A stretch of 42,351 nucleotides of DNA from Chiloscyllium plagiosum (taxonomy: Eukaryota). The stretch covers positions 118,143 to 160,493 of the forward strand of contig NC_057718.1 in NCBI RefSeq assembly GCF_004010195.1, read 5' to 3'. This document shows positions 6,140-41,122 of the stretch, in pieces. The stretch's first letter is position 1, and each line of letters begins with the position of its first letter. The notes under the pieces are model-generated. The model was not told the DNA's origin, did not search any database, and saw nothing but the letters and a program-made list of their open reading frames with translations. Made by a program: the position numbers and the translations under genes.

Positions 6140-7662
6140 TTTGGTAAACTGCTGCCCCAGACGGGTTCCATCCCAGAGTATTCAGGGAGAGCACAGTAGA
6201 GCTAATGAAAGAGTTATAGTCATACAAGACAAAAACAGACCCTTCGGACTAACCAGTCTGCACCAACCATAATTCCCAATCTAACTGAGTTCCACCTGGC
6301 AACGCTTGGCTCATATCCATCCAGACATTCCCTATACATGTACTTATCCACATGTCTTTTAAACGTTGAAACTACAAGAATTAATTATTGAATATCCTTC
6401 AAAATTAGTTGGACTCTGGAAATTCCGGTTCCTGCAGACTGGAAAGTAGCTACACCCACGCACTCTCTTCTTCTGTCTCTCGCTCTCTCTCACACACACA
6501 CATACACACAAATCTGTGGGTCAAATTTGTATTTGGAGATACAGGTGTGGTGGATAGCGAAGATGGTTAGTTCAGAGTACAACGAGATCTTGATCAGATG
6601 GGTCAATGGGCTGACAAATTGCAGATAGGGTTTAATTTAGATAAATGTGAGGTGCTGCATTTTCAAAAAGCAAATCAGAGCAGGACTTATACACTTAATG
6701 GCAAGGTCCTTGGGAGTGTTGCTGAACAGAGACCTTGGAGTGCAGATTCCTTGAAAGTGAAGTTGCAGGTAGACAGGATAGTAAGGAAGGCATTTGGTAT
6801 GCTTTCCTTTATTTGTCAGAGCATTGAATATCAGATTTGGGATGGCATGTTGCAGCTGTACAGGACATTGGTTAGGCCACTTTTGGAATATTGTTTGCAA
6901 TTCTGGTCTCCTTCCTATCCGAAAGATGTTGGGAAACTTGAAAGGGTTCAGAAAAGATTTTCAAGGATGTTGCCAGGGCTGGAGGATTTGAGCTATACGG
7001 ACAGGTTGAATAGGCTAGGGCTGTTTTCCATGGAGCATCTGTGGTGACTTTATACAGGTTTATAAAATTATGAGCGGCATGGATAGGGTAAGTAGACAAG
7101 GCCATTTCCCTGGGCTGGGGGAGTCCAGAACTAGAGGGCACAGGTTTAGGATGAGAGGGGAAAAGTTTAAAAGGGACCGAAGGGACAACTTTTTCATGCA
7201 GAGAGTGGTACATGTATGGAATGAGCTGCCAGATGAATTTGTGGAGGCTGGTGCAATAACAACATTTGAAAGACATCTGGATGGGTATGTGAATAGGAAC
7301 AGTTTAGTGGGATATGGGGGTTTAGATTAGAGTGGTGTTGGAAAAGCACAGCAGGTCAGGCAGCATCCGAGAAGCAGGAAAATCGACGTTTCGGGCAAAA
7401 GCCCTTCATTCGGAATGGCTTTTGCCCGAAACGTCAATTTTCCTGCTTCTCGGATGCAGTCTGACCTGCTGTGCTTTTCCAGCACCACTCTAATCTAGAC
7501 TCTGGTTTCCAGCATCTGCAGTCCTCACTTTTGCCTTAGTGGGATATGGGCCATGTGCTGCCAAATGGAACTAGATTAGGTTTGGATATCTTGTCGGCAT
7601 GGTCGAGTTGGACTAAAGGGTCTGTTTCCATGCTATACATCCCTGTGAATCCATGACTCCAT
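6140..7662 (+). mobile_element. CR1-clade LINE (HER1-like) 3' part, RT C-terminus and 3' UTR; contains an antisense CR1 tail (~6210-6375) and a mini-PLE
   Basis: WADKLQIGFNLDKCEVLHF...LYRTLVRPLLEYCLQFWSP...LERVQKRFSRM...TRGHRFR, followed by a short tandem 3' terminus. Confidence 0.85.
7319..7535. mobile_element. Miniature fold-back PLE (family A) with degenerate hammerhead motifs
   Basis: Inverted arms of ~80 bp, ~35-nt tail on the right, perfect 15-bp TSD ttagtgggatatggg at 7304-7318 and 7536-7550. Confidence 0.9.
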
Positions 7663-8744
7663 GTCTCTCTCACAAGCAACTGACGAAGGAGAGTATTTTC
7701 AAATAAACTGGTTGTAATATAACCTTGTAGCATGTGATTTTTGACCTTGTATAACCCAGTCCAACATCAGCCCCTCTACATTATTGCTGCACATGGACAC
7801 AGGTTGCTTCAGGAGCTGAGGGGTGATGAATTGTTCTGAACATTGTGTGATTTTCAGTAAACATCCTCACTTTGGTTCTTACGATGGGGGCAAGATACTG
7901 ATGAAGCAACTGAAGGCGTTGGTGCTGAGGATGCTACCCTGACAATCTCCTGCAGAAATGTACCAATACTGAGAGAATTGATGTCCAGGAATCACAAACA
8001 TCTTTCTTTGTGCTATGAATGAATCCAACCAGTGGAAAATTTGCATCTAATTCCCATTAAGTGCGATTTTGTTCAGCTCCTTGATACCATCTGAGTCAAA
8101 GACTGCCTTGATATCAGGGCCAGTTACTCTTACCTATGCCCCGTGTTCACTTCTTTTGTTAATGTCAATAGGTTATGATGTAGGAGTTGGAAATGTTTTC
8201 GCATATCTGGAATTTTCTAATCCAGTTAGTTAGCGGAGCTTGATCACTGAAAGTATTTAGAAAGGAGGTAACTGGATTTTGATTTGTCAGAATGTTAAGG
8301 GCTATGAAGAATTAGACATCAGAGAGATTTCCAGACCTAGAGCAGATCAGCACGATCTTATTGATGGGCAAGGCAGGCTCGGGGATATGGGGGAAGGGGA
8401 CGAATAAGCTGCTCATGTTTATAATGTTCTTCTATTCTGTTATTGAGAAGTTTGTGCTTGTTATTTTCCTGAAAGTTCTGTTATTGAATGTTGTAGTCAG
8501 TGAGACCAGAGATTTTGATCTCTGTGAGATATGAGAGATGTATCCAAGTGAATCTGGGTGTATATCATGACCAACAAATGAAGCACAAGTTGCAGAGAGG
8601 GGAATCTCTATAGAGAGAGAGAGACAAGGAGCTTCTTTCACAACGAGCCTGGGTTTTCCAAATACGTTTTCCAAACCACCGTAAACCGTATGCAACAGTC
8701 TTGAGGGTTTGAATAGTGTCTATTTCTGTGCACTGGATTATCAA

Positions 8745-9295
8745 AGAATAGAATTCCTACAGTGTGGAAGCAGGCCCTTCTGCCCAACAAGTCTTCACCG
8801 ACCCTCTGAACAGCAACCCACCCAGACACATGCCCCCCCCCCTACCCTATTAGCACCTAACCTACACATCCCTGAATACTATGGGCAATTTATCATGGGC
8901 GAGCCACCTAAACTGCATATCTTTGGATTGTGGGAGGAAAGAGCTGGAAATGTGTTGCTGGAAAAGCGCAGCAGGTCAGGCAGCATCCAAGGAGCAGGAG
9001 AATCGACGTTTCGGGCATGAAGAAGGGCTCATGCCCGAAATGTCGATTCTTCTGCTCCTTGGATGCTGCCTGACCTGCTGCGCTTTTCCAGCAACACATT
9101 TTCAGCTCTGATCTCCAGCATCTGCAGTCCTCACTTTCTCCTATTGTGGAAGGAAACCAGAGCACCCAGAGGGAACCCACGCAGAGATGGTGAGAATATG
9201 CAAGCTCCACACAGACGATCGCCTGAGGTTGGAATTGAACCCGGGTCACTGGCACTGTGAGGCAGCAGTGCTAACCACTGAGCGACCGTGCCACC
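8745..9295 (-). mobile_element. HE1-type tRNA-derived V-SINE, interrupted by a mini-PLE
   Basis: Reverse complement matches the copies at 11949 and 19162 (ggcacggt...cagtggttagcactgctgcctcacag head, CR1-like tail). Confidence 0.85.
8941..9142. mobile_element. Miniature fold-back PLE (family A)
   Basis: Near-perfect inverted arms, 34-nt tail, 14-bp TSD attgtgg(g/a)aggaaa at 8927-8940 and 9143-9156. Confidence 0.9.
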
Positions 9296-9599
9296 TACTT
9301 ATTGGAAAAAGTGGCCTCTGAGTTATCCTGTCCAGCAGATTTGAGGGGCCGAATGGAATGGAGGGACATGGGACTGAGGAGCAGGAGTGGATCACTAGAT
9401 ACTTTCAGCCATTTCCACCAGACAGTAAGATTCTGGCTGCTCTGGTCATGGTCTCAGTCCATGTCTATATCCCATGACTCACTTGTATTTCAAATATTTT
9501 GCTTTGAAAGAACTGTAAACAGAGAGGCACCACAAACTTCTGGGCAAGAGAGTTTCCACACTGAAAGGCCGTTTTAGAATTTCTCCTCATCCATCTTAT

Positions 9600-9840
9600 A
9601 GAGTTAGAGAGCTATACAGCCTGGAAACAAACCGGTTAATCCAACTTTCCCATGCTGACCAGCTGTCCTAAACCGATCTAGCCCCATTTGCCAGTATTTG
9701 GCCCATATCCCTCTAAACCATTCCTATTCATGTACCCATTCCAGATGCCTATTAAATGTGTAATTGTACCAGCTTCCACCACTTCCTCTGACAGCACGGT
9801 CTGAGCGTGCATCACCCTCTGCCTGAAAAGGTTGCCACTT
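9600..9840 (-). mobile_element. CR1 LINE 3' tail fragment
   Basis: Reverse complement similar to 7190-7660 (EEVVEAGTIT...GLEGYGPNTGKW). Confidence 0.75.
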
Positions 9841-9849
9841 TGATATCGG

Positions 9850-10028
9850 ACATGCACACACACATAAACACATACAGACGCACACACATAGATAGACATG
9901 CGCACACACACACAAACAGAAACACAAACAGATGCAGACACATACATTCATGCATACACGTGCACAGACACATACACTTAGACACACTCACCCAAACTCA
10001 CACACGTACAGACAGACACACACACATT
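9850..10028. repeat. Degenerate (CA)n-rich simple repeat
   Basis: cacacacataaacacatacagacgcacacac... Confidence 0.85.
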
Positions 10029-11948
10029 CTTCTGATGACAAACAGAAAAGCAAAATTTCTGCGATATTAATTTGAAACAACTTGGTCCAAACATTGGTTG
10101 AACTCATGACAAAAGGAAACATGAGAGATTGTCCCAAATATTATTCATAAGACCATAAGACAAAGAAGCAGGAATTTGGCCATTTAGCCCATCATGTCTG
10201 TTCCGCCATTCAATCGTGGCTGATAGGCTTCTCAATCCCATTGTTCTGCTTTCTCCCTGTAATCCTTGATCCCCTTTAGAATCAAGAAACTATCTTCAAC
10301 TTAAATGTACTCAATGGTTTGGCTTCCACAGCCTTCTGCGGCAATAGATTGACCACTCTCTGGTTCAAGTATTTTCTCCTTATCTCTGTTCCAAAAGCTC
10401 TTCCCTTTACTTTAATGCTGTGCCCTCGGGACATATTCTCTCCTACCAAAGGAAACATCTTCCCAAAATCCACTCTGTCCAGCTATTTGGTATTCTGTAA
10501 GTTTCTATTAGATCCCCCCTCATCCTTCTAAACTGCATCGAGTATAGACCCAGAATTCTCAAACGTCCCTCATAATTTAAGCTGTTCATTCCTGAGACCA
10601 TTCTTGTGAATCTCCTCTGAACACATTCCAAGACTAGTTCATCCTTCCTGAGATATGGGGCCCAAGACTGTTCACAATACTTCAAATGTGACCTGACCAG
10701 AGCTTTATAAAGCCTCAGAAGTACATCCCTGTTTTTATATTCATGTCCTCTTGAAATAAAATGCCATCATTGTATTTGCTTTCCTAATTCCTGACTCAAC
10801 CTGCAAGTTTACCTTGAGAGAATCCTGGACTAGAACTTTCAAGTCTCTTTGCACTTCAGACTTTTGAAGTTTCTCCCCATTTAGAAAATAGTCCACGCCT
10901 CCAATTTTCCTACCAAAGTGCATGCTCTCACACGTTCCCATGTTGTCTTCCATCTGCCACTTCTTTGTCCACTTTCCTAACCTGTCCAAGTCTTTCTGCA
11001 GCCTTCCCGCCTCCTCAATGCCATCTGTCCCTCTACCTATCTTTGTACCATCTGCAAACGTAGCCAGAATGCCCTCAGTTTTTTTCATCTAGATTGTTGA
11101 TGCATAAAGTGAAATGTTATGCTCCCAAAACTGGGTCTTGCAAAACACCACTTGTCACTGGCTGCTGCACTGAAAACACTTTCATCCACATTCTCTGCTT
11201 TCTGTCAATGGATTCCAGGATCTTACCCATGACTAAAATTAGGCTAATTGGCACCACCTTGCCTTTAACACCATGGGCCCTTATCTTACTCAGTAGCCTC
11301 CTGTGTGACATATTGTCAAAGGCCGTCTTGAAGTCCAGGTTGATAACATCCATTGCCTCTCCTTGGTCTAATCTGCTTGATACTTCCTCAAAGAATTGTA
11401 GCAGATTTGTTAGGCAATGACCTCCTCTTGATGAAACCATGTTGACTCTGCCCTATTTTACCATACACTTCCAAGTATTAAGAAATCTCATCCTTTCTGG
11501 TGGATTCCCGGGTTGTACCAATGACTGAGATTAGGCTAATTGGTATGCAATTTTTCCATCCTCTGCCTTACTCCCTTTTTAAACCAAGGTGCTACATTAG
11601 CAATTTTCCAGTCCTCTCTCACCCTCCCTGGTTCTAGTGATTCCTGAAATTACCACTATCTCTTCAGCTATCTCTCTGAGAACTCTGGGGTGTAGCCCAT
11701 CTGGTGCAGATGATTTATCCACCTTCAGGACATTCAGTTTTGCTTGCACCTTCTCCTTGGTGATGATCACCATACTCAGCTCTGCCCTCTCACTCTTTTG
11801 AATTGTTGGGAAATTTCTCATGTCTTCCACTGTGAAGACTGACATGAAGTAATTATTCAGTGTCTGAGCCATTTGTTTGTTCTCCAATGCTACCTCTCCT
11901 ACGTCAATGTCCATTTTTTCTTTTCTGTTGCTCTTTATACAACTAAAT

Positions 11949-12739: not shown

Positions 12740-14198
12740 AAGTCTTTCAAAAGTCACTGGAGTCAGGGAAAGTCCCGGATGATTGGACGATCGCTGTTGT
12801 AACCCCCTTGTTCAAAAAAGAATCAAGACAAAAGATGGAAAATTAGAGGCCAATTAGCCTAACCTCGGTTGTTGGTAAAATTCTAGAATTCATCATTAAG
12901 GATGAGGTTTCTAAATTCTTGGAAGAGCAGAGTCGGATTAGAACAAGTCAACATGGATTTAGTAAGGGGAGGTCGTGCCTGACAAACCTGTTGGAATTCT
13001 TTGAAGAGGTGACAAGTAGGTTAGACCAGGGAAACCCAGTGGATGTGGTCTANNNNNNNNNNNNNNNNNNNNNNNNNNNNNNNNNNNNNNNNNNNNNNNN
13101 NNNNNNNNNNNNNNNNNNNNNNNNNNNNNNNNNNNNNNNNNNNNNNNNNNNNNNNNNNNNNNNNNNNNNNNNNNNNNNNNNNNNNNNNNNNNNNNNNNNN
13201 NNNNNNNNNNNNNNNNNNNNNNNNNNNNNNNNNNNNNNNNNNNNNNNNNNNNNNNNNNNNNNNNNNNNNNNNNNNNNNNNNNNNNNNNNNNNNNNNNNNN
13301 NNNNNNNNNNNNNNNNNNNNNNNNNNNNNNNNNNNNNNNNNNNNNNNNNNNNNNNNNNNNNNNNNNNNNNNNNNNNNNNNNNNNNNNNNNNNNNNNNNNN
13401 NNNNNNNNNNNNNNNNNNNNNNNNNNNNNNNNNNNNNNNNNNNNNNNNNNNNNNNNNNNNNNNNNNNNNNNNNNNNNNNNNNNNNNNNNNNNNNNNNNNN
13501 NNNNNNNNNNNNNNNNNNNNNNNNNNNNNNNNNNNNNNNNNNNNNNNNNNNNNNNNNNNNNNNNNNNNNNNNNNNNNNNNNNNNNNNNNNNNNNNNNNNN
13601 NACCGTTATGCTACTGAGACTTTATAAAGCTCTGGTTAGGCCTCATTTGGAGTACTGTGTCCAGTTTTGGTCCCCACACCTCAGGAAGGACATACTGGCA
13701 CTGGAGCGTGTCCAGCGGAGATTCACACGGATGATCCCTGGAATGGTAGGTCTAACATATGAGGAACGGCTGAGGATCCTGTGATTGTATTCTTTGGAGT
13801 TTAGAAGATTAAGGGGAGATCTAATAGAAACTTACAAGATAATACATGGCTTGGAAAGGGTGGACGCTAGGAAATTGTTTCCGTTAGTCGAGGAGGCTAG
13901 GACCCGTGGACACAACCTTAGAATTAGAGGGGGTAAATTCAGAACAGAAATGCGGAGACATTTCTTCAGCCAGAGAGTGGTGGGCCAGTGGAATTCATTG
14001 CCGCGCAGTGCAGTGGAGGCCGGGACGCTAAATGTCTTCAAGGCAGAGATTGATAAATTCTTGATGTCACAAGGAATTAAGGGCTACGGGGAGAATGCGG
14101 GTAAGTGGAGTTGAAATGCCCATCAGGCATGATTGAATGGCGGAGTGGACTCGATGGGCCGAATGGCCTTACTTCCACTCCTAGTCTTATGGTCTTAC
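12740..14198 (+). mobile_element. Younger 5'-truncated CR1 LINE inserted antisense into the older CR1; spans the assembly gap
   Basis: SQHGFSKGRSCLTNLLEFFE before the gap; [15 protein letters not shown] and RRLRGDLIETYK..TRGH after it; ends tcttatggtctta. Confidence 0.9.
13053..13601. other. Assembly gap (N run)
   Basis: 549 consecutive N. Confidence 1.
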
Positions 14199-18452: not shown

Positions 18453-18454
18453 AG

Positions 18455-22572: not shown

Positions 22573-22636
22573 ACAATGCCCACATTTTGGGTCACATTTT
22601 ATGTGCCAGCTTTCAGCTCTGTATGGATTTATTAAA

Positions 22637-22724
22637 GCTGAAAATGTGTTGCTGGAAAAGCGCAGCAGGTCAGGCAGCATCCAAGGAACAGGAGAATCGA
22701 CGTTTCGGGCATAAGCCCTTCCTC
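22637..22724 (-). mobile_element. Single-arm mini-PLE (family A), truncated within the hammerhead core
   Basis: 14-bp TSD atggattt(a/t)ttaaa at 22623-22636 and 22725-22738. Confidence 0.85.
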
Positions 22725-25022
22725 ATGGATTTTTTAAATCTGTTTAACTTTACTGAATTACACAGGAAACATTTTTCATTGTTAAACAGATGCAGGGTAT
22801 TTGTCTTAACTATAGGAAGTATTCCACCATTGAGATAAAATGTGAACATCTTTAATTGCTTGGTTATGACTTCCAATTTACATGGTTAATATATCCGTAG
22901 ACTGCAATATTAGGGAAGAAATCCTGCAGACACATTCTGCGCAATGAAGGATCTCTAATAAATATTATTACTGAGCACCACAGACAATGAAAGAGTAAAT
23001 TTCTGGTTCCAGAAGACCATATTGCAGATCATTATTTTCAGCCTCTAACATGTGACTGCCCTCTTCCTAAAGCCATTAAATGATAAAAGGCAACTTATTA
23101 TATTCCAGCCGGTCCTCACCACTGGCTGGGTCTGCAATCCACCCCCATCCTCCTTCTGCTCACACAAGCAAAACCAAGCTCAGGGTCTTTGTGAAAATCA
23201 AAGCCCGGTTTTCAGGGGAGAGTCTTTTAAAACTGAAGGGGGAGAGTGAAGGATGTCATATCCCTTACTCGGCTGAGGAGTGCAGATGGAGTTGAACTTG
23301 GATAAATGTGAGGCGTTGCATTTTGCTCAAGCGAAGTCAGACATATTAGTCAGAACAGAGAGACCTTGGCATTCAGGTACAGTTCTTTGAAGTTTGTATC
23401 ACACATACATCGGTTGTTAAAAAGGTGTTTATATAACTTACCTTCATTATACAACCTTGGAGTTGGAACATTATGTTGTGATTATGGAATACATTGATGA
23501 GGCCTCTTCTGGAGTACTGTATCCAGTTCTGGTCGGCCTCTTATAGGAATTACATTATTAACCTGGAGTCAGTTCAGGAGAAATTTACTAGGATGTTGCC
23601 TGGAATGGAGAGTTTGAGATAAAGTATTACGCTACATAGGCTGGGACGTTTTTCACTGGAGCCTAGCACGTTGATGGGTAACTTAGAGAGATTTATTAAA
23701 TCCTGAGAAGTATAGAACATAGAACATAGAACAATACAGCGCAGTACAGGCCCTTTGGCCCTCGATGTTGCGCCGATCCAAGCCCACCTAACCTACACTA
23801 GCCCACTATCCTCCATATGCCTATCCAATGCCCGCTTAAATGCCCATAATGAGGGAGAGTCCACCACTGCTACTGGCAGGGCATTCCATGAACTCACGAC
23901 TCGCTAACATCTGTCCTATACCTACCCCCCCAACTAACTGTCCAACTAAGTTTTCAAACAGGCAACATAAAGAACATAGGCTGAATTTTACCAGCCCAGT
24001 GAGTTGGTTTGGGAGGCAGGAGGCCTCATAAAATGGTACAGAATGTATTAAGAGGGGAGAATATTGTCTTTCTGCTATCATGATTCATTAGCAAGTGGTA
24101 GTGTGGCCATGCTTACCACAAGGCCAATAAATTCAATGAAGTGAAAAATTAAGGGCCACTCCTACCCCATCAGCATTTTACTAGAATCAGGAGGTGTGCT
24201 GTTGTGCAGATAGAACAGAGAAGGTCTTTTCCCTGGGGTGGGCGAATCCAGAACTAGACAGCAAAAGTTGAGGCTTAGAGGAGAAAGATTTATTAGGGAC
24301 CTAAGGGGCAACCTTGTCACTCAGAGGATGGTGCATGTATGGAATGAGCTGTCAGAGTAAGTTTTGGAGGCTGGTACAATTACAACATTTAAAAGGCATC
24401 TGGATGGGTAACACCGCTAGTGGCGGCACTCCAAGATGAACCTTTGCCATCAACTACTACCCTCTGTCTTCTTCCAGCCGGCCAATTCCTAATCCAAACC
24501 TCCAACTCGCCCTCAATGCCATACCTCCGTATTTTTTTGCAGTAGTCTACCATGGGGAACCTTCTCAAACGCCTTACTAAAATCCATATACACCACATCT
24601 ACTGCTTTCCCCTCGTCCACCTCCTTAGTCACCTTCTCGAAGAATTCAATAAGGTTTGTGAGGCACGACCTGCCCTTCACAAAACCATGCTGACTATCCT
24701 TGATCACATTATTCCTATCCAGATGTTCATAAATCCTATCCCTTACAATTCTCTTTAAGATTTTGCCCACAACAGAAGTGAGACTCACCGGCCTATAGTT
24801 ACTAGGGTTATCCCTACTCTCCTTCTTGAACAAGGGAACCACATTTGCTAGCCTCCAATCTTCTGGCACTACTCCTGTAGACAACGAGGACATAAAAATC
24901 AAGGCCAATGGCTCTGCAATCTCTTCCCTTGCTTCCCAGAGAATCCTAGGATAAATGCCATCAGGCCCAGGGGACGTATCTATAGATAAGGTGAATGGCA
25001 GATCTCTTTTTCCCTGGGATGG

Positions 25023-26783
25023 GAATCCGTGATACCGTTTAACCACCACTTCTGACTGTGTAATGACATGGGGAGGCAAGTAGAGAGCAATATTGTGTCA
25101 CTTGACACACCACAAAGACAGTCAGATCTTCCACACATGTAGATGTGCACACACACACACACGCAAACGCATACAAACTACACAGACTCGGATGCACACA
25201 CAACCCAATATAGACACATGGAGACACACATTAATATGATGACATGTGAGTCTGTCAGTAATATCTCTTGTTCCTTGGTGCATTGTAATATTTCACTCAC
25301 TCTGTCTACTTTGTGTAAGTATTTCCAGTGCTTAGTTGGCAGTGTATCATTATTTGATTAGCTCCAAGAAAAAATTGTCAATGTTTTGATCGGTCCGTGG
25401 GGTGTGTATCAATATTTCACTTGCTTATACCAGTGAGTATGTCAGTATGTCAGTTGTTCTGCATAAAACATGACTATGACAATTTCAAGTCTCGGGAGAT
25501 AGTGAAAGGTGAGAGGAGAAAGATTTTTAAAACTACATTCTTTTAATTAAACAAACAGTGGTTCGTGTGTGAAATGAACCTCCACAGGAAAAGGTGGGTG
25601 AGGGTGCAGTTACAATGTTGTAAAATCATTTGGATAAGTTCATGAATAAGAGAAGGTTTGTAAAAATAAGGGCGCAGGCAGATGGAACGAGTTTAGTTTG
25701 GGACTAAGTTCAGTATGGACAGGTTGGACCGAAGATTCTGTTTCTGGACATTATGACTGTAGGTGCGTTTGTGTGTCTGTGTATGGATCATAGTGTTTCT
25801 GTCTGTGTTAATGCCTATTTCTGTGTGTCCCCCTTGCATGTCTATCACTGTACGTGTTATGCGTGTTCCTGTATTAGTCTGTGTATGTATGTTTGTATCT
25901 CTACCTGTGCATCTCTGTGCGATGACAACTCTTTTGTTTTGGGTGTGAATTATTGAAATGAGAGTCAAAGTCTCTCTCTCCCCCTGCCTCTACCTCCAGC
26001 TGCTCCTATTTTGTTTAAAGTGATACAATGCAGTCTTTTTCTGTTGGTTTTAGTACATTTAAATCAATTCTCACATGTAAGATTAATTGTAAGAGTAAGT
26101 CATAAAACTTTGCAAGTTACAGAAAATGCAATAAAATTCATCTCATCTCCTTCAAAAATGGTTCATTCGGAGGTGCCTGGATATAATTACAGTGGAAATA
26201 CTTTTTAATGTGTATACTCTGTGTCAGGGTCAGGAAAACTGCCCAGAAACAAATCATTTCCACATTGCAAAGACAGTGCAAACATTTCTCCACATGTGCA
26301 TATTCCACTCTGAGGGCCCTGAGTATAGTTGCAATCCTCCCAATACTAGACTGTGTGTCTGTGTATATGTGTGTGGGTTAATGGTGCTGTCAGTTTGAAT
26401 GATGCTGTGAGCTGCTGTCCTCCCTCTCTGACTGAATCCGTGATACCATTTAACCACCACTTCTGACTGTGCAATGACATGGGGAGGCAAGCAGAGAGCG
26501 ATATTGTGTCACTTGACACACCACAAAGACTCTGGATTAGTGGTGCTCCAGAATCTGGTTTCCAGCATCTGCAGTCATTGTTTCTACCTACACCACAAAG
26601 ACAGTCAGATCTTGATCAGTCGATGCTTAGTTGGCAGTGTATCATTATTTGATTGGCTCCAAGAAAAATTTGTCAACGTTTCGGTCGGTCCGTGGGGAGT
26701 GAATTAATACTTCACTTGCTTATACCAGTGAGTACGTCAGTATGTCAGTTGTTCTGCATGAAACATGACTATGACAATTTCAA
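25023..26783 (+). repeat. Local duplication of ~270 bp of apparently unique sequence (25023-25488 and 26434-26783)
   Basis: gaatccgtgatacc...atgactatgacaatttcaa occurs twice, each copy with a private insertion. Confidence 0.9.
26531..26589 (+). mobile_element. 59-bp minimal PLE insertion (inverted stub plus tail)
   Basis: Perfect 13-bp TSD acaccacaaagac at 26518-26530 and 26590-26602; the empty site is present in the paralogous copy near 25107-25119. Confidence 0.9.
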
Positions 26784-27771: not shown

Positions 27772-27886
27772 AAGGTAAAAACAATGACTGCAGATGCTGG
27801 AAACCAGATTCTGGATTAGTGGTGCTGGAAGAGCACAGCAATTCAGGCAGCATCCAAGGAGCTTTGAAATCGACGTTTCGGGCAAA
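27772..27886 (-). mobile_element. PLE family A 3' end, truncated in hammerhead stem II
   Basis: ggtaaaaacaatgactgcagatgctgg...gaaatcgacgtttcgggcaaa. Confidence 0.8.
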
Positions 27887-27919
27887 TTGGACTCAGACAC
27901 TTCAGCAAGCAGTATAAGC

Positions 27920-29097: not shown

Positions 29098-29741
29098 ATT
29101 TTGCAGAACGCTATTGAAAAATCTTCATTTCAGCATTTTGAAACCAGTGAACTCATCTTTCCATGACATTGTCTCTCCGTCTCCCTCTTTCTGTCTGTAT
29201 TCCAAAATTCTCCCAGTGATTTCATGTCCATAGTACCTCTTGTCATGGCTCAATTGAGACATGGAGCTATAAATAGATGGGAGTTGCATGTCCTGTCACC
29301 TCCAGCATGGGCTGAAAGTTTCCCCACGCTGGGCAGCAGTCTAACACAGTCTTACCAAGCACTGGGGTTGTCTACACAATACTGCTTGCTGGGGGTATTA
29401 TTCCTCTAGGTTTACAGACCAATTCATTGCTGCTCGCTGCATAGCATTCAAGGTGAGCAGACATCTACTCCAGGTTAAAAATAAATAGACCACTATGGTC
29501 TGTAGTGTTCCCCGTGCTGGTCACATAACCAGTCTGAGTTGATAGATCAATGCACTGTTGTGGTGTGCAGAAGTTCCACAGATGGCTGGAGGGTACTTGC
29601 TTGTACATTAGCCTGTCTACACTTTGCTTTTCTGATGTTTCATCTAGGTTTATAGTGTCTGGGATGTTTCTGTAAGGTAGATTGAGAATGCAGTACAACC
29701 AACCATTTCAGCTGATCTGGCAATGCCTTTATTTTATGTTC

Positions 29742-30097
29742 AAAATGTATTGCTGGAAAAGTGCAGCAGGTCAGGCAGCATCCAAGGAGCAGGAGAATCG
29801 ATGTTTCGGGCATGAGCCCTTCCTCAGGAATGAGGCGAGTGTGCCAAGCAGGCTAAGATAAAAGTTAGGGAGGAGGGACTTGGGGGAGTGGCGTTGGAAT
29901 CCTCCAACCACAAGGGATGAACTCAGATTTCTCCAGTTTCCTCATTTCCCCTCCCCCCAACTTATCTCAGTCCCAACCCTCAAACTCAGCACCACCTTCC
30001 TAATCTGCAATCTTCTCCCTGACCTCTCCGCCCCCGCTTTTCCAGCAACACATTTTCAGCTCTGATCTCCAGCACCTGCAGTCCTCACTTTCTCCTG
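29742..30097. mobile_element. PLE family A with inverted arms; hammerhead motif on minus at 29796-29831
   Basis: 12-bp TSD tattttatgttc at 29730-29741 and 30098-30109. Reverse complement attc-CTGAGGA-a-gggc/tcat/gccc-GAAACATC-gatt. Confidence 0.85.
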
Positions 30098-30270
30098 TAT
30101 TTTATGTTCTCAGTTTGATGATTTACCCTTCAACAGCTGACTCCGAATGGTCCCATTCCAGTTTCAACCCCCGTATTTCTGCAACTTCTTGTCCAATAAA
30201 TAATTTTCCAATTTAAACGTGAATAACTCTGCTATATATTTACCTGGCCTTTGGTACTGTTCACTCTGGA

Positions 30271-30852
30271 GTTAAAAATCACACAACACCAGGTTATATT
30301 CCAACAGATTTACTTGGAAGCACTTGCTTTCAGAGCACTGCTCCCTCATCAGGTGGTTGTGGAGTATAACTTATACAAAATTACATTTTACTTGCACAAA
30401 AACTGCATGAATCCATATAAGATTCTGTAAATCAGTTTTTTAAGATTAGAATCAGACTGACCATTGTGGCACAGACAGCTTTACAGGAAGTTAACACCTT
30501 CAATACCTTATCTGGGCCGACACGACATCAATTGTTAGCGTGCACTTGAGAATGTAACCTTTAAAAAAAAGATTTACGATTTACATACGAAAGAATTGAA
30601 ACCAACATGGTCATGCTAAAAGATGAGAGACTTAACAAACAATCCGGGTCATTTTCAATATATAATTTCAGTCACTTCACTTTGTAAACTTTTGTTATAA
30701 ATTCTGTGTCTTACAATCTTATTCTTCACAATCACCTGATGAAGGAGCAGCACTCCAAAAGCTAGTGCTTCCAAATAAACCTGTTAGACTATAACCCGGT
30801 GTTGTGATTTTTAACTTTGTCCACTTCAGTTCAACACTGGCATCTCCAAATC
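30271..30852. mobile_element. PLE family B variant with inverted arms and two degenerate hammerhead motifs (minus ~30321-30355, plus ~30733-30767)
   Basis: Ends match 1977ff and 4740-4884. Confidence 0.85.
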
Positions 30853-31728
30853 CTGTTCCTGTGTAATAGGTTTGTGAAAATAGATGTCCTCCTCCTGCTC
30901 CTGAGTAACAGGCTCCAATAGCTGTATGCTCACCTGCTGCTCCTGTGGAAGGGAATTGAGCGACTGAATCGTCTCTTCCCATTCCTTACAGCTTCTATTG
31001 ACTGAAAGCCTTTTGCCTGTTTCTGTAAAACATCTCAAAACCTGAATCATGTGTTTGTGTTTTCTTTCTCAGTAAAGGAGCAACCAAGCTGAATGCCAAT
31101 GCTTTTGGATGATAGATGTGAAAAGCTTCTGTGTAACAGGCTCGAGAGGCTGAATGGCCTCCTCCTATCCCTCTGTCACAGGCCTATGGAGAAACAATTA
31201 CTTCCCCTATTTCTGAGCAGCATGTTGATACTCTTTCTCAAGGTTATGAAAGGGTTTGATAACATGGCACTTAAAATTTGGAGCAACATTACACAAAATC
31301 ACCGACAATAACTATTATTATTCTAGTTTATGGTCTCAACTAGATATTTTATGCAGCTCGTCTGTTTTTTTTTATCCCTGTCTCCTTTTTCAACAGGGTC
31401 GGACATATACAACCCTGCAGTGTTCTGGCACTACTTACGCACACAAGGGAGAAAGATTAAAAGGATTGAAAGATTAATAGTCCATCCCTCACCAACCCGC
31501 TACAGTCCATCCAGATTGCTCCTTTTTAATGTAAAATGAAAAGTGATGTAAGGAAGGAGTTAACTGAAACTGTTTGTTAAGTGATTGCGATTAAATGTCA
31601 GTCTCTATGGATTCTAATTATCCCAGTAAAGGGTTCCCATCTTTTAATTATACGTGGGCTCCATTCAATGTGCCAAGGTATCCAACAGCACTAAAAGGGA
31701 TCAGCAGCTCCAGAGAGAGGGGAGGAAA

Positions 31729-32260: not shown

Positions 32261-32397
32261 ACTCATTCCTGATGAAGGGCTTTTGGCTGAAACGTCAATT
32301 TTCCTGCTCCTTGGATGCTGCCTGACCTGCTGTGCTTTTCCAGCAACACTCTGATCTTGATTCTGACCTCCAGCATCTGTGGGTCTTTTTCGCCTTT
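32261..32397 (+). mobile_element. PLE family A 3' end with hammerhead motif 32265-32300 (stem II damaged)
   Basis: attc-CTGATGA-a-gggcttttggct-GAAACGTC-aatt. Confidence 0.8.
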
Positions 32398-33462: not shown

Positions 33463-33871
33463 ATATCATCACATCTGTCCAGAAACATGTCTCAGTCTCT
33501 CTCTGTTGATTATACAAAAACCTGTTGGTTGTTTCACTTTTAAACGTTTTTACCTCTGTGCGTGTTCTCTCTCAAACAATGTTTTCACATCTAACCTTCC
33601 CTCCACAAACTCCCACAATCCCCCACTCTCACCAACCCTTACACACTCACTCACACATGCACATCCCTTCTCTTGTATTAGTTCAATAGAGATATCAAGA
33701 CATAACTTTGTGGGAGCCCCATTTACTGTAACTCAGCATTGGCTTCAAGTTTTCCTATGTTAGCTAATTAGCTAGTGCAAGTATAGTAGCAATACACTGC
33801 CAAAAAAATTGCAATGCCCTCTATGTTGGACAGTTAGTCCAATTTACTGAGCAATACACCAGTTTGATCTA

Positions 33872-34085
33872 GGAGAAAGTGAGGACCGCAGATGCTGGAG
33901 ATCAGAGCTGAAAATGTGTTGCTGGAAAAGCACAGCAGGTCAGGCAGCATCCAAGGAGCAGGAGAATCGACGTTTCGGGCATGAGCACTTCTTCCTGAAG
34001 AAGGGCTCATGGCAGAAATGTCGATTCTCCTGCTCCTTGGATGCTGCCTGACCTGCTGCGCTTTTCCAGCAACACATTTTCAGCG
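33872..34085. mobile_element. Miniature fold-back PLE (family A), tail on the left
   Basis: Inverted arms; 13-bp TSD ccagttt(g/a)atcta at 33859-33871 and 34086-34098. Confidence 0.9.
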
Positions 34086-34299
34086 CCAGTTTAATCTACA
34101 CAGCTCTCGATGCTGGGCGGTCATTTTGTCCCAGTTTATGCTGCCTGGGCTGGTTCTGTGAGACATGTTTAGAATTTGATAGAAAGAAACATTTCAACTG
34201 CTCTGGTATTGATTTTATTGGATGTTTCCAACATCTCACTTCTCCACATATTCCTACTCCACTGTCTTTTTTCCAATATTTCCACAACATGGAGTCTTA

Positions 34300-34580: not shown

Positions 34581-34670
34581 GGCACATTCTCAGTTAATTA
34601 ATTGTTTCTTTCTATCTTTAATGTGGACCTTTCTGTCCATCTGAGTCTTTCCCTGACCTTGGTTTATGGC

Positions 34671-35414
34671 TCAAAGTGTGTGGCGTTGGAAATGCACAGC
34701 CAGTCAGGCAGCATCCATGGAGTAGGAGAATTGGTTTCAAGCATAAACTCTTCATCAAGAATGAGGCTTGTGGCCCCAGGGTGCTGAGAGATAAATGGGA
34801 GGGGGTAGGGCTGGGGTGAAAGTAGCTGGGAATAAGATAGGTAGATGAAGGTGGGAGTGAGGTTATAGATTGGAGAAGAGGGTGGACCAGTTAGTTGGGA
34901 AGGAGGATGGACAGGTAGGACAGTTCAAGATGGTGGTGCCAAGTTGGATCAGGGATAAGGTGGGGGAGAGAAAGTGAGGAAACTGGTGAAACTCACATTG
35001 ATCCCGTATGGTTGCAAGATCCCAAGGCTGAAGATGAGGCATTCTTCCTCCAGGAATCGGGTGGTAAGGGTTTGGAGGTGGAGGAGGCCCAGGACTTGCA
35101 TGTCCTTGGTGGAGGAACAGATAGTGAAAGTATTCGGCTAATGGGCAGTGCGATTGTTTAATGCGTGTGGCCCAATTCTCTGAAACGTTCCACAAGTTAG
35201 CGTCCTGGCACATTTTGTCTCCAATGTGGAGGAGACCATATCGTGAGCAACAGACACAGTAGATGATGTATATGGAAGAACCTTCATTCCTCATGAAAAG
35301 ATTATGCTTGAAACGTTGATTCTCCTGTTCCTCAGATGCTGCCTGACTGGCTGTGCTTTTTCAGCACCAAACTCTTTGACTTTGATCTCCAGCATCTGCA
35401 GTTCTCACTTTCTC
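34671..35414. mobile_element. Older PLE (family A-related) with a GIY-YIG relic on minus and an inverted 3' arm
   Basis: IIYCVCCSRYGLLHIG in ORF 34863-35294; both ends carry degenerate hammerhead-region sequence. This links family A to a GIY-YIG PLE. Confidence 0.8.
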
Positions 35415-36475: not shown

Positions 36476-36499
36476 CTCCATGAAGAAAGATTTATTTCC

Positions 36500-36795: not shown

Positions 36796-37109
36796 TTAAC
36801 TACTGGAATGGCCAGTATGCCATCTCAAAAAGATGGCCTCTCTGATGAAGGCCGTTTCCTTGGAACACAGTTCAAAACACACTCCACCTCACCACTCCCT
36901 ACTGACTTTACCTATCTATACACTTTTGGAAACTCCACCCTCTCTTGATAATTTATTTTCTTGCGTATCTCAATTTTCTCATTGCCTGATATACCTGCAT
37001 GTGAGATTTGTATGATACACACAAGGGCATGCAGACCCTTTAGCACTTAGAAATTTCTCTCTATTTAGATAACAATTTGCTTTTCTATTATACTGACAAC
37101 AATAGATAA

Positions 37110-37915
37110 TGTCATGTTACACTTGTATAATTCATTGGTGAGGCCCCACTTGGAACATTGGGTGCAATTTTGGTCACCCTGTTATAGGAAAGACATAGTT
37201 AAGCTGGGAAGAGTGCAAAGAAGATTCACAAGGATGTTATCAGGACTATAGGCCTGAGTTACAGGAAGAAATTGGCCAGGATAAAACTTTATTCCTTGGA
37301 ACATAGGAGAATAGTGTTAACCTTATAAAACCATGAAGGGCATAGGCGGGAAGAATGTATATAGTCTTTTTCCCAGGGATGAGAAGTTGAAAACTGGAGG
37401 ACATGGATTTAATGTGAGGGGGAAAGGTTTAAGAAGGACCTGAGGGGCAACTTCTTCACACCTATAGCAGTGTGTATATGGAATGGGCTGCCAGAGAAAG
37501 TGGTTAACAGGTAGGAGACTAGGAGAACACAGAATGCCAGGCAGCATCTGGAGGTGGACAAGTTGACATTTGGAGTGTAACCCTTCTTTAGGACTCAGAA
37601 GTCCTGAAGAAAGGTTACACCCAAAATGTCAACTTCTCCACCTCCTGATGCTGCCTGGCTTGCTGTGTTCTTCCAGCCTCCTGTCTATCTATTTTGGATT
37701 CCAGCATCTGCAGTTTTTATGTCTCTAGGGGAAGTGGTTGAGGCAGATACAAGAGCAACATTTTAAAAACATTTGTATAGGTACAAGGATGGTAAGGGTT
37801 TAGAGGGGTATGGACCAAATGTGAGTAAGTGGAATGAGCTGAATGGGCACTTTGGCCAGCATGGACCAATTTGGGCTGAATGGGATGTTTCCATGCTGTA
37901 TTACTCTATGACTCT
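37110..37915 (+). mobile_element. CR1 3' fragment with nested mini-PLE
   Basis: [23 protein letters not shown]; actctatgactctat terminus. Confidence 0.8.
37506..37726. mobile_element. Miniature fold-back PLE, family C, with two degenerate hammerhead motifs (minus 37562-37594, plus 37601-37633)
   Basis: The two arms suggest a consensus gtc-CTGAAGA-a-gggt/tac/accc-(G)AAA(C)GTC-(g)ac. Imperfect TSD ag(a/g)g(a/g)aagtggtt. Confidence 0.75.
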
Positions 37916-39465
37916 ATAACTCATATTTAGCCATGTTACATTTCACTGCGAAATGTTATCCCTTCACCTAAACTATCCATTATGGTTCGAACATTTCTTA
38001 AATTGTCATTACAACTTTTTTTCCCTCATTGCTGAAAATTTAGCATTTCTTATTGCTTCATCCAAAGAATACAACAGATGGCAAGCAGTTGGGGCCTGAG
38101 ATCTGAAGTCTCCAGCACCTCAAAATTTGCCAACCAGAAAACAATGCATCTATCCCATCTCTGCATTTTGGCGGTTTACATTTCCTCTGTCCAAGCCAAT
38201 AAACTACTCCTAACCCCCTGTGCTCTTATTTTAAGGATTAATCTTTTTTGCAGAACCTTATTCCATTCCTTTTGGAAGTCTACATATATTGATGCTCCAG
38301 AATCCCCATTATCCACCTTGCCTGTCCCATCTTTAAAGAATTCGAGCAAATAATTCAAACACAATTCTGCATGGGGTGGTTTGCTTTAACACTAGCTTGA
38401 CCACCAAACTAGAGATCAGGCTGTTTTAGAATTGATGGTGAGTGATCAGAAGTGCTAATTAAAAACCTTTTTTGCCTAGTGTTGCTGAGACTAAAGCTGG
38501 AATGTTGTGTACAGTTTTGGTGTCCCAATTTAAGAAAGAATATACTAATGGCAGAGGAAGCTCTCCAGCTTAATCCCTCAGGCAGCAAATTTCCTCTGAT
38601 GAGGAAACTCAGTCTGTATTCTTTTGAGTTCAAAGAATGTGAGTGATTGCAGTGAAACTTAGAATATTCACACAGAGGGGACTGACTGACACAGGGGCAT
38701 GGAGAAGTCCAAGCAGGCAAAGTTAGAAAGAATCCCAAGGAATTCTAAAAGTACATAACACAGAACATAAAAACCAGGGAACAATTAGGGCCCAGTAGAA
38801 ACCAAAGGGAAATATGTATGTGGAGCTAGGCAACATTGATAAAGTGTTACATGAGTGTTTCGCCTCTGTTTTACTTTGGAGAAGGACGCTGCAAGTACAG
38901 AATTCATGAGGATAGACCTTGAAGCTCTTGAGTAGATTGATATAAAATGTGAACTGAGATTGATGGTTTTGGCTGGCATAAGGTTGGACAAACCACCAAG
39001 TCCAGATGAGTTGAATTTCAGGCTGAGGGTTAGAAACAAAGGAGGAAGGAACCTAACTCAAATTCTGTTGTAGAATGTGGCTAGCTGGGAGGTGTCAGAG
39101 GACTGAACGGGAGGTTCCCATTCATAGGAAGGATGGCAAAAATAGACCAGGGAAAATTGGACAAGAGAGTATCAGATCATTCTTAGGGAAACTGTTAGAG
39201 AAAATAGTAAAGGAGAAAATTGATCTCCAATTAGAGAGGCAATGTTTGATCAGGGATCGTCAGCATGACTTTATCAGAGGGAAGTTGTGCTGAACGAATG
39301 TTATTGTTTTTTCAAGGGGGTCATTTATATTTGTTTAGCAAGGCCTTTAACAAAGCCTCATATAAGAAACTGATAAACAATGTAAAATCTCATTGTATCA
39401 AGAGATTGGCAAGTTGCCTCCAACATTGTCTTAGTGGCGGGAGACAGATGGCGGTGGTTGAAGAC

Positions 39466-39563
39466 GGGGTAAAAACAATGACTGCAGATGCTGGAAACCA
39501 GATTCTGGAATAGTGGTGCTGGAAGAGCACAGCAGTTCAGGCAGCATCCAAGGAGAAGCTCCT
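39466..39563 (-). mobile_element. Mini-PLE family A (tail plus partial arm)
   Basis: Perfect 14-bp TSD cggtggttgaagac at 39452-39465 and 39564-39577. Confidence 0.85.
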
Positions 39564-39835
39564 CGGTGGTTGAAGACTGTTTGTGCGACTTCAGACGGGT
39601 TTTTGCTGGCATTGCACAGGGATCAGTGCTGTGTCCCTTACCATTCTTGGTTTTCATAAACATTACAGATATGAATGCGGACAGGGATGGGGCAAGTGTG
39701 ATAAGTAGGTTTGTGCTCGACACAAAGATTGACTAGGTAGTAAGTGGAAGGTTTTATGTTGCAGGATGCTACAGATGGAATGGTCAGTTGGAAAGATCAA
39801 TGGTAGATGGAATTGAATCCTGCCAAATATGAAGT

Positions 39836-39923
39836 GAAAAATCACTCAACACCAGGTTATAGTCCAACAGGTGAACCTGGTGTTGTGTGATTTTTAACTT
39901 TGTCCAACACCAGCTCCTCCAAA
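39836..39923. mobile_element. Mini fold-back PLE, family B termini only
   Basis: aaaaatcactcaacaccaggtt / aacctggtgttgtgtgattttt inverted pair; imperfect TSD at(a/g)tgaagtga. Confidence 0.75.
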
Positions 39924-40827
39924 ATGTGAAGTGATATGCTTTGGAAGATGGAACGAGACAGGGGAGTATTGAATGTATGGTAACACAAGAGGAAGTTTGG
40001 AGATTAATGAGTAAGAAGCCAAAGGGGGCTGAATGCATCGGCATAGCCTTTATATATCAAGGCATAGCTTGTAATACAGGACGTTGGTTAGGGCAAGATG
40101 AAATACTGTGTGCAGTTCTGGGAGCCACATTGCAGGTAGGGTGTGATTGCACTGGACCAGGTGCAGAGAAGATTCACTAGGATGTTGCCGGGATGGAGCA
40201 CAGCAGTTATGAAGACAGACTGGATAACCTTGGATTGTTTGTTTTTGTGCAGAGAAGGCTGAGGGGGGTGTAATTCAGAAGTATAAAGTTACAAGTGACA
40301 TGGACATGGAGAGACAGCAGCTGTTCTTTTAAAGTGAAGGGTTCAATGTTTAGAGAGGGTGTGAGGATTGCTTTTCAGATGGTGTTGGGGATCTGGAGTG
40401 CACTTCCTGAGAGTTGTCACTTGTAACCACACAAGCATTAAAAAGTACTTGGACGAGCATTTGAAGCATTATTACATTCATGTAAATGGACCTCGTGTCA
40501 GAAAATGGGACTGATTTTGATGGTGCTGTATTTCTAACAGTACAGAGTCTATGCTTCTGTGATTGTATGATTGTAGAAGTAAATCAATGAGTAGCTTAAA
40601 ATGGGAATTGATGATTCTATTAAGAGCAAATTAGCAATGGTTATAATGGCTTCTAAAAGAATGCCAAAGAGAAAGGTAAGAGAAAGAATTGCAGCTACAT
40701 TACTATCTGAAAGAAGGGAATGAAGAATGGGAAATTGTCAGAAACTTTAAGCAACTACTTCAGTTCTATCTTCACAGAAGAAAACACGACAAAACAACAA
40801 AAAATCCCAGCAGCACTAGAAAACTAA

Positions 40828-41122
40828 TGTTGCAGACATTTCATCCCCTGTCTAGGCGACATCCTCAGTGCTTGGGAGCCTCCTGTGAAGCGCTTCTGTG
40901 ATCTTTCCTCCGGTATTTATAGTGGTTTGAATCTGCTGCTTCCGGTTGTCAGTTCCACTATAAATACCGGAGGAAAGAGCAAAAGGCGCTTCACAGGAGG
41001 CTCCCAAGCACTGAGGATGTCACGTAGACAGGGGACAAAATGTCTGCAACACAAATTCCCAGCTCGGTGAACAGAACCACAACAACGATCACCCGAGCTA
41101 CAAATCTTCTCACAAACTTTGA
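40828..41122. mobile_element. Miniature fold-back PLE, family D, with hammerhead motifs at minus 40832-40871 and plus 41008-41047
   Basis: Inverted arms of ~100 bp; perfect 13-bp TSD actagaaaactaa at 40815-40827 and 41123-41135. Minus arm reads gca-CTGAGGA-t-gtcgcct/agac/aggggat-GAAATGTC-tgc. Confidence 0.85.

Follow-up and report, generated by a model that had tools for sequence, protein, structure and literature searches.

The window analysed in this study, i.e. the whole 42,351-nucleotide stretch of Chiloscyllium plagiosum DNA, carries many short insertions in which the 3' end of a Penelope-like element (PLE) is joined to an inverted copy of itself, and it raises the question of what sets the 5' ends of these copies. 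How PLEs transpose, and what their hammerhead ribozyme contributes, are described as open questions in the available text of PMC8557442 and PMC11167929. Positions below are those of the window; offsets are relative to the hammerhead cut site, with negative values upstream and C17 as the cleavage-site base.

The eight insertions first noted at 7319, 8941, 26531, 29742, 33872, 37506, 39836, and 40828 are genuine PLE ends laid down as an inverted copy with a one-sided tail, since an inverted arm and a target site duplication (TSD) were detected in all of them. The TSDs, initially put at about 12-15 bp, are direct repeats of 13-16 nt, with scores of 15, 11, 13, 13, 10, 8, 10, and 13 in the same order. 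Among 300 random boundary pairs the top score was 8, reached once; seven of the eight insertions score above every such pair, and the repeat at 37506 (8 nt exact; 13 nt with two mismatches) is only level with the best. An empty site for the 26531 insertion, matching both flanks, lies in the neighbouring duplicate at 25023-25130.

The inversion centre, initially placed in or just 5' of the hammerhead in several insertions, lies there in four of the eight. These are the family A fold-backs at 7320..7535 (plus strand; antisense arm without tail reaching about -31, sense arm starting at about -20/-25 and bearing the 35-nt tail; TSD 7304-7318 / 7536-7550), 8941..9142 (plus; arm ends -15 and -26, 34-nt tail; TSD 8927-8940 / 9143-9156), and 33872..34085 (minus; arm ends -25 and -30, 35-nt tail; TSD 33859-33871 / 34086-34098), and the fold-back of the A-related family C at 37506..37726 (plus; arm ends about -34 and -31, 37-nt tail, weak TSD). 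The junctions at 8941 and 33872 use 3-nt self-complementary overlaps. The centre lies 3' of the hammerhead in the 59-bp family A fold-back at 26531..26589 (plus; centre +46/+56, 37-nt tail, exact 13-nt TSD) and in the family B fold-back at 39838..39921 (plus; centre +17/+31, 13-nt TSD with one mismatch), whose tail was apparently shortened by deletion and is not countable. In the family D fold-back at 40828..41122 (plus; exact 13-nt TSD) it is some 90-100 nt further upstream than the cut site; this unit has a hammerhead in both arms (40835-40868, minus; about 41011-41044, plus). The family A insertion at 29742..30096 (plus; TSD 29726-29741 / 30094-30109) has three parts: a sense piece from about -296..-165 sits between an antisense arm to -90 and a tailed 3' end from +39. 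The tail length of 34-39 nt in the initial annotation applies to most units and the tail is longer in family D (71 nt), as stated there; the 29742 tail, at 40 nt, exceeds the range.

Single-arm copies that break off inside the hammerhead were correctly recognised at 22724 and 27886. One is a lone tail-less family A arm (22636..22725, minus) that ends at -26 within the CUGANGA core and has a decayed TSD of 18 nt with two mismatches; the other is a lone tailed family A copy (27774..27886, minus) that ends at -14 in the stem II loop, and a TSD was looked for there and none was found. Lone tailed family A copies also occur at 32262..32396 (plus; start about -34, without an inverted arm), with a weak TSD (10 nt, one mismatch) whose score of 7 is inside the null tail, and at 39468..39563 (minus; end about +7, exact 14-nt TSD). 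An older family A inverted unit at 34663..35414 (plus), for which no convincing TSD was found, joins a tail-less arm to about -550 with a tailed arm from -36, and a tail-less family A arm at 1..157 (plus) runs off the window start and was treated as censored at -93. Family B is further represented by a 3' end of about 390 nt (153..545, plus; hammerhead 423-451), an older inverted unit (30267..30855, plus; the arm without tail reaches about -45 and the tailed one measures about 475 nt), and a 2.9-kb head-to-head insertion (1977..4884, plus) with GIY-YIG coding remnants on both arms, a 39-nt tail, and an exact 12-nt TSD. A sensitive search of the window added no short A/C fragments, and none of the genome, viral, and metagenome collections searched contained a match to a 33-nt family A pattern. 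No RNA holder turned up among the indexed runs, a result that has no bearing on expression.

Judging from sequence features, families A and B appear to be endonuclease-bearing (EN+) PLEs of the Neptune-like type. The family B fragment at 2741-3229 scores 0.96-0.97 in the ESM Atlas against clusters in which 18-31% of members carry PF01541, and the long tail-less arm of the 34663 unit holds a homologous GIY-YIG remnant (34985-35267; tblastn E=3e-6). The CX2-5CxxC linker between RT and EN, an EN+ PLE trait according to the available text of PMC8557442, is present in the family B translation; it also occurs in a piece at 41760-42040 that is not tied to family A. No RT core was identified within the window, Pfam returned 0 families for four ORF fragments (window-end fragment excluded), and families C and D have no ORF attached. 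The pseudo-LTR carries a minimal hammerhead, and the inverted 5'-truncated copy, one-sided tail, and TSD occur together. Hammerhead cores with stem II were found by pattern search in families A, B, and D, and by alignment in family C. Rfam gave no hammerhead family at E<=1; its eight matches, all far under gathering scores, are of the miRNA hairpin type.

MITEs are short, hairpin-shaped, non-autonomous class II elements. The units here differ from them by their retroelement origin, asymmetric one-sided tails, variable lengths (59-355 bp) and junctions, and unrelated 13-15 nt TSDs, and the label 'MITE-like' is therefore withdrawn. Terminal inverted repeats do not extend to both ends, lengths and centres are not uniform, and no short fixed TSD with a DNA-transposase partner was found; the arms are contiguous with GIY-YIG retroelement sequence. 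As stated in the initial annotation, junctions differ: every copy in the window has its own, and several subfamilies are involved. The units resemble non-LTR retrozymes (bioRxiv 10.64898/2026.07.22.740005) in being PLE pseudo-LTR-derived, non-coding, and hammerhead-bearing; unlike those head-to-tail tandem arrays, they are TSD-bounded single events, arranged head-to-head or as single arms.

The fold-back anatomy itself is not new. EN+ PLE insertions with an inverted 5'-truncated pseudo-LTR and a 30-40 bp tail are described in the available text of PMC3846280 and PMC8557442, and the complex insertions reported there share with ours the head-to-head inverted copy, one-sided tail, and TSDs, as well as the C-terminal GIY-YIG, the pseudo-LTR hammerhead, and the palindromes or overlaps at junctions. 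Unlike them, the present units are mostly cut to 60-360 bp, with 5' ends clustered at a fixed position above the cut site. This clustering seems to be the new observation; no report of it was found in the available text of the PLE literature.

In families A and C, 12 of 18 arms terminate between 14 and 36 nt upstream of the cut site (p=5e-5), in a zone that was chosen after the data were seen and with ends read by hand. Counting one arm per insertion gives 7/11 and 8/11 in the zone (p=0.002 each). Ends per 100 nt at risk number 0.40 between +60 and 0, 2.7 between 0 and -40, and 0.33 beyond -40; this low-high-low hazard at the hammerhead is not the smooth length decay that would have contradicted the initial annotation. 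Position, not length, sets the ends: the mean end is -26.9 for tailed and -27.2 for tail-less arms, with mean cDNA lengths of 126 vs 90 nt. The cut site is intact. None of the 18 ends is at +1 (the nearest is at +7) and all 12 zone ends keep the scissile site; therefore, cleavage does not appear to cause the end position, and the suggested link between cleavage and integration is not supported. Most A/C copies break off at one fixed position shortly upstream of the cut site, which suggests that they are complete copies of the beginning of the RNA and neither random truncations nor products of ribozyme cleavage. The ends span about 22 nt and not a single base; therefore, a reading in which the enzyme runs off the RNA must assume trimming. 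At most two of eight B arms and neither of two D arms in the window end near the core.

A similar sharp peak was found in an unrelated GIY-YIG PLE family on metagenome contigs, where 13 of 25 ends lie 12-24 nt above C3. The hazard there is 3.4 per 100 nt vs 0.6 and 0.16, and the excess in the first 24 nt has p=2e-7 (5e-5 without five possibly diverged members). Tailed and tail-less arms end together despite a length difference of about 50 nt, TSDs of 10-14 nt accompany 5 of 15 short arms (null 1/208 at the same score), and the four fold-back junctions read all differ. The peak is above C3 and outside helix I in MFE folds; therefore, the enzyme seems to have already passed the ribozyme. An extended helix I as its cause was unsupported in MFE folds of six members. 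In a second outside family 8 of 27 ends fall in the first 24 nt (p=0.12), without a clear peak. A peak of 5' ends at the hammerhead thus stands for families A and C, but not as a general rule, given families B and D of the window and one of the two outside families.

Raw reads were analysed against the 29742 insertion, which carries a minimal hammerhead core at 29800..29827 (minus; C3 at 29827, C17 at 29800) and, beside it, an initiator-like YYANWYY with its A at 29831 (-31). This motif has its A at -31 in 6 of 7 A/C cores inspected; the six are related copies, not independent ones, and part of the motif also belongs to helix I and a small hairpin. In RNA reads, loci count according to how strongly they are expressed. 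In run X21 the depth is 1429 (+24..+11), 471 (-18..-31), and then 125, 133, and 121 (-32..-73), i.e. an approximately tenfold fall across the zone with a plateau after it, a fall inflated by subfamily divergence. Clipped but element-like variants continue upstream (142 X21 reads at 29822; 91 and 71 contigs at 29812), and the reference copy carries private changes at 29836-29846. Contig depth in X3 peaks at 17.6M vs 2.2-2.9M in the best upstream bins; such depths are over-smoothed and divergence-sensitive, and serve for a rough plateau only. Among the fold-back-type joints listed, 10 of 12 end at -15..-32 and none beyond, with two at +10 and +13. No pile-up at 29799-29800 was seen among the loose ends listed (24 of 1296). 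The two alternative 3' termini, 34-40 nt apart in the window, are the main loose ends in all four read runs. Start mapping in X21 showed no read-end pile-up, in a poly(A) single-cell library unsuited to show starts.

On balance, we consider it probable, if by no means assured, that the reverse transcriptase initiates at an internal site of the 5' pseudo-LTR and continues off the RNA 5' end, and that two of the resulting cDNAs join head to head. The insertions would be dead-on-arrival products of EN+ PLEs, in which each target nick may prime a separate cDNA, one per start site. Priming in the 5' pseudo-LTR of uncleaved RNA would copy the whole ribozyme and end at the RNA 5' end, which is put near -31 to -36. 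Both cDNAs would then be slightly trimmed at their ends and joined via 1-7 nt microhomologies, perhaps aided by a short self-complementary stretch that spans -36..-21. The long copies, which pass the zone without extra loss, would come from priming in the 3' pseudo-LTR. In the available text of PMC11167929, the PLE protein nicks both strands, reverse transcription begins internally at two sites spaced by the tail, a shorter template 5' end gives a shorter product, and hammerhead cleavage is unnecessary; a transcription start within the pseudo-LTR is described in PMC2377424 and PMC8557442, as far as their available text goes. In none of the copies does the ORF extend beyond the tail on its downstream side, which counts against the run-off reading. 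It is a plausible, somewhat less assured extension that most short copies are complete 5'-leader cDNAs, from start site to the first RNA base, like the strong-stop DNA of LTR elements; as part of that extension, they would integrate directly, singly or as head-to-head pairs. Snap-back of a single cDNA was rejected as a general route: the tail-less arm extends further upstream than the tailed one in at least four units (26531, 29742, 34663, 39836), and therefore one self-folding cDNA would be insufficient unless a later deletion occurred. A splice acceptor at the boundary was also rejected, as AG is absent just above the core in aligned w1, 29742, and 32262 (one is present in 34663), and the copies have no common upstream exon-like sequence.

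RNA structure is the main rival of the run-off reading, and it is a rather unlikely but substantial one. Here RT would pause or release in the folded hammerhead region, whether at stem II, at an overlapping hairpin (-36..-21), or in a hammerhead dimer formed between molecules; two cDNA ends would anneal through the self-complementary stretch. RNA structure is strongest in the zone (-8 to -14 kcal/mol per 40-nt window vs 0 to -5 upstream), and the ends fall within its most stable windows; the overlaps at 8941 and 33872, the palindromes reported at pseudo-LTR 5' ends and inverted junctions of rotifer PLEs, the dimeric action attributed to minimal hammerheads, and the 22-nt spread, which suits pausing, all agree with it. 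However, an enzyme that travels 3' to 5' along the template would be expected to stall where it first meets a hairpin, at its 3' foot, whereas 10 of 12 zone ends lie beyond stem II (4 bp); moreover, partnerless arms end at the same place (22636, 32262; L002, L004, L025, L038, L071), and the metagenome-family peak lies 12-24 nt above C3, where an extended helix I is unsupported. This rival resembles the palindrome self-priming proposed in the available text of PMC3846280, and also the RNA-structure idea of the initial annotation.

Amplification of a few short MITE- or SINE-like master units, with the peak reflecting common ancestry, is improbable. The joint 29822-30035, which may recur at many loci, was seen in three runs (4, 4, and 6 contigs), where its depths add up to 256, 237, and 395 and thus greatly exceed the 6-18 of unique sequence in X3; another joint reaches 1513 in a second species, and PLEs do have internal promoters and non-autonomous derivatives. 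But depth does not measure copy number, chance alone would repeat junctions when a very abundant family has a hot zone, and the junctions in the window, with several subfamilies, and the four in the metagenome family all differ. In addition, the RNA of the anole element must reach ORF +172, beyond the start site at +111-118; therefore, the stubs may lack the binding site. More improbable still is the absence of any true hot spot, with smooth or single-peaked lengths, detection bias, and subfamily divergence producing the peak: the numbers are small, the zone post hoc, the ends hand-read, the read data affected by divergence, and one outside family lacks a clear peak, yet the hazard is low-high-low, TSDs confirm the boundaries, arms share an end position although their lengths differ by 36 nt in the window and by about 50 nt in the outside family, and the sensitive search brought up no missed short A/C fragments. 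Least probable, and very improbable, is that hammerhead cleavage sets the ends. Different subfamilies conserve the motif, a single copy ends at about +7, and two listed joints are at +10 and +13; the expected +1 ends are absent from all 18 window ends and the 12 listed fold-back joints, and uncleaved RNA is the main substrate in vitro.

In LINE-1 twin priming both target nicks prime cDNA and the inverted 5' part is joined by microhomology, as in the run-off proposal. The two LINE-1 parts are adjacent, non-overlapping stretches of one RNA, whereas the two arms here are copies of one shared stretch, each begun at one of two fixed start sites. The Anolis carolinensis Poseidon element (PAc, PMC11167929) likewise has two 3' termini spaced by the tail, an uncleaved template, and a hammerhead about 60-120 nt upstream of the start sites; it differs in being a Poseidon-clade element studied in vitro, and the available text contains no analysis of genomic 5' ends or fold-back junctions. 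The hammerheads resemble the minimal type I motifs of PMC4209133 (CUGANGA...GAAA core, no helix III loop, palindromic 15.2-16.2 pair), including their opposite-strand pairs, there 100-700 bp apart in metazoan PLEs. That study proposes cleavage and circularisation, whereas nothing in the present ends points to a template that had been cleaved.

Such hairpins could be mistaken for MITEs or miRNA precursors during annotation. A fixed 5' boundary above the ribozyme, shared by both arm types in two unrelated animal families, is in vivo evidence for an uncleaved template, and the common boundary also points to separately primed arms. The run-off reading makes a single sharp prediction, namely where the RNA starts. 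If the 5'-leader reading is true, the stubs would mark the transcription start and the two reverse transcription start sites of each family, and the hammerhead would be uncleaved in the template used in vivo.

All eight fold-back insertions (at 7319, 8941, 26531, 29742, 33872, 37506, 39836 and 40828) are present in this repeat-rich animal DNA, and inverted arms, i.e. copies of the 3' end of a Penelope-like element (PLE), were found. Their flanking direct repeats (TSDs) score 15, 11, 13, 13, 10, 8, 10 and 13, against a top score of 8, reached once, among 300 random pairs. For the insertion at 26531, the empty site is kept in a nearby duplicate; the two copies of this local duplication (25023-25488 and 26434-26783) are 93-96% identical, one with the insertion and the other with its empty site. 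The tail length of 34-39 nt proposed in the initial annotation holds in six family A and C units (35, 34, 37, 40, 35 and 37 nt) apart from the one at 40 nt, and the longer tail of family D was confirmed (71 nt in the 40828 unit, both arms of which carry a TATA-like motif, 40958-40966, some 80 nt upstream of the cut site). The tail at 39836 is shortened. The 29742 insertion (29742-30096) is composed of three parts: between its arms sits sense sequence copied from a stretch about 165-296 nt further upstream, which implies extra template switches. In a family B head-to-head unit of 2.9 kb (1977-4884), each arm retains a GIY-YIG remnant and the 3' regions are rich in (CA)n, and an old family B fragment (7682-7793), with uncertain boundaries and an internal deletion, apparently starts in the hammerhead core. 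At 13053-13601, an assembly gap (run of N) lies within a LINE-like reverse transcriptase fragment. The hairpins at 7331-7489, 8977-9071 and 37565-37630 gave below-threshold Rfam matches to miRNA precursors, which could mislead miRNA annotation.

The anatomy of a fold-back plus a tail is ordinary for PLEs. PLE insertions typically consist of a 5'-truncated inverted copy plus a tail of 30-40 bp on one side (PMC8557442, PMC3846280 and PMC8969392), and opposite-strand hammerhead pairs are described in PMC4209133. The label 'MITE-like' does not apply, since the insertions failed the tests for MITE identity; those for retrozyme identity, as defined in bioRxiv 10.64898/2026.07.22.740005, also failed. 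By the tested features, the elements are EN+ PLEs and work like them. Families A, B and D each contain minimal hammerhead cores, as does family C by alignment. Family B arms continue into a GIY-YIG-like frame (ESM Atlas score 0.96-0.97), to which a remnant in the long arm of family A at 34663 is homologous. A Pfam scan matched none of four ORF fragments, and no RT was found in the window. A CX2-5CxxC linker in the sequence suggests the Neptune clade. At 41760-42351, PLE coding pieces stand in an odd order: immediately after the piece with the CxxC linker comes a second one, which looks like an N-terminal section of a PLE ORF.

On a scale with the hammerhead cleavage base C17 at 0 and minus values upstream in the element, core base C3 of family A lies at -27, and its two 3' termini, used by tail-less and tailed arms, at about +62 and +98. 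The 5' end of every A/C arm in the window (n=19) was read by hand; one arm runs into the window edge and was treated as censored, and the middle piece of 29742 was not counted. No more A/C fragments turned up in a sensitive search of the window. Ends occur below the cut site (+56, +46, +39, +7), in a zone above it (-14, -15, -22, -25, -26, -26, -30, -31, -31, -34, -34, -36) and far upstream (-90, -550), those of 7319 and 37506 being uncertain by several bases. The hazard of an arm ending, per 100 nt at risk, amounts to 0.40 from +60 to 0, 2.7 from 0 to -40 and 0.33 beyond -40, rather than the smooth length decay that was the alternative to a hot spot; the excess in the zone, which was picked post hoc on data already seen, has p=5e-5, or p=0.002 with one arm per insertion. 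Single-arm copies end near the hammerhead as proposed (22724 at -26, 27886 at -14); these two (units 22636 and 27774) and the other unpaired ends, those of 32262 and 34663R, share the zone of the paired ends. The positional boundary in families A and C is real. The proposed hot spot does not extend to family B, in which at most two of eight window arms end near the core, without an A/C-like peak, or to family D (0/2 window arms), and of the eight insertions, four have their inversion centre within the hammerhead or immediately above it, and the other four do not.

A generic core pattern, by which only intact cores are sampled, gave at least 120 metagenome loci with at least 126 cores, and the two largest families among the matches listed were analysed; both (families 0 and 1) are GIY-YIG PLEs by tblastn. 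Family 0 comprises 42 arms; this number excludes duplicates of the same locus, two arms that lack upstream sequence and one member that had diverged, and includes five singletons added by eye. Among the matches listed, 13 of its 25 ends sit 12-24 nt above C3, the first 24 nt giving p=2e-7 (5e-5 once five members that may have diverged are set aside); tailed ends (16, 7, 17, 19, 16, 15) coincide with tail-less ones (18, 17, 9, 20, 20); and TSDs of 10-14 nt flank 5/15 short arms vs 1/208 null pairs, with five of the 15 being fold-back arms unscorable by the search used. Family 1, with 38 arms and five duplicates removed, shows no clear peak among the matches listed (8/27 ends, p=0.12). The A/C boundary thereby recurs in one outside family of the two analysed. 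Animal DNA from metagenome assemblies also contains fold-back PLE stubs centred a little above the hammerhead (loci L014, L021, L072 and L078; also L024, L028, L086 and L093), and in the PLE families of these loci the 3' termini listed form two groups, near +60 and near +110, with a tail of about 50 nt.

Four sequencing runs were aligned to 29720-30110 at 88% likeness. Among 15 joints listed of 492, three are the reference's own layout; ten of the other 12 lie at -15 to -32 and two at +10 and +13, with none beyond -32. The different junctions had been taken to argue for independent formation. One high-depth joint (29822 to 30035) recurs in three runs, so some identical junctions may be repeated. 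Two fold-back junctions (29829 to 30070 and 29790 to 30035) that reach very high depth, 1513 and 1045, only in a related species (run X13) may be amplified units. In poly(A) single-cell RNA (X21), about 2 in 100 of the run's raw reads were used and 2501 aligned, with loci weighted by expression. Depth from +24 to -87 was 1429, 1184, 847, 471, 125, 133, 121 and 97, and 20-42 over the piece at -165 to -296. This drop is due in part to divergence, since 142 reads clipped at 29822 run on into an element-like variant, contigs clipped at 29812 into the loop of another subfamily, and the reference copy carries private changes at 29836-29846; with the 142 reads restored, about four fifths of the depth is still lost.

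Hammerhead cleavage, proposed to link the ribozyme to integration, predicts ends at +1; none was seen, and the boundary points away from it. According to PMC11167929, cleavage is dispensable, both strands are nicked and extended during integration, tail length equals the spacing of two internal RT start sites, and a shorter template 5' end gives a shorter product in vitro. A length effect was rejected since tailed and tail-less ends coincide (means -26.9 and -27.2, paired arms not being independent) despite a 36-nt length difference. Folding back of a single cDNA cannot yield the longer tail-less arms of 26531, 29742, 34663 and 39836, and so two priming events are more likely.

There is roughly an even chance that the RNA 5' end sets the end position, and we infer an RNA start site near the arm ends. 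PLE transcription starts within the pseudo-LTR (PMC2377424 and PMC8557442); a tandem transcript would therefore have, roughly 100-130 nt downstream of its 5' end, a site at which RT can start. In Drosophila, an intron lies 46 nt below the transcription start and its end meets helix I (PMC2377424 and PMC4209133). Weak signs of a start are an initiator-like YYANWYY with its A at -31 in six of seven related cores and, about 30 nt above it, a short motif common to three subfamilies. It is less probable, though possible, that RNA structure sets the position, the zone being more folded than any other part of the RNA and including a small hairpin that overlaps the core. The two causes are not exclusive, because joining may be aided by the hairpin, with the RNA end fixing how far the copies reach.

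A literature search that covered few subscription papers, and not the PLE reviews of 2005-2006, gave no description of clustered 5' ends upstream of the hammerhead, which may nevertheless already be in print. With the anatomy already known, the part that may be new is the positional boundary above the hammerhead in families A and C, which allows an unsettled question of mechanism to be tested in a simple way.
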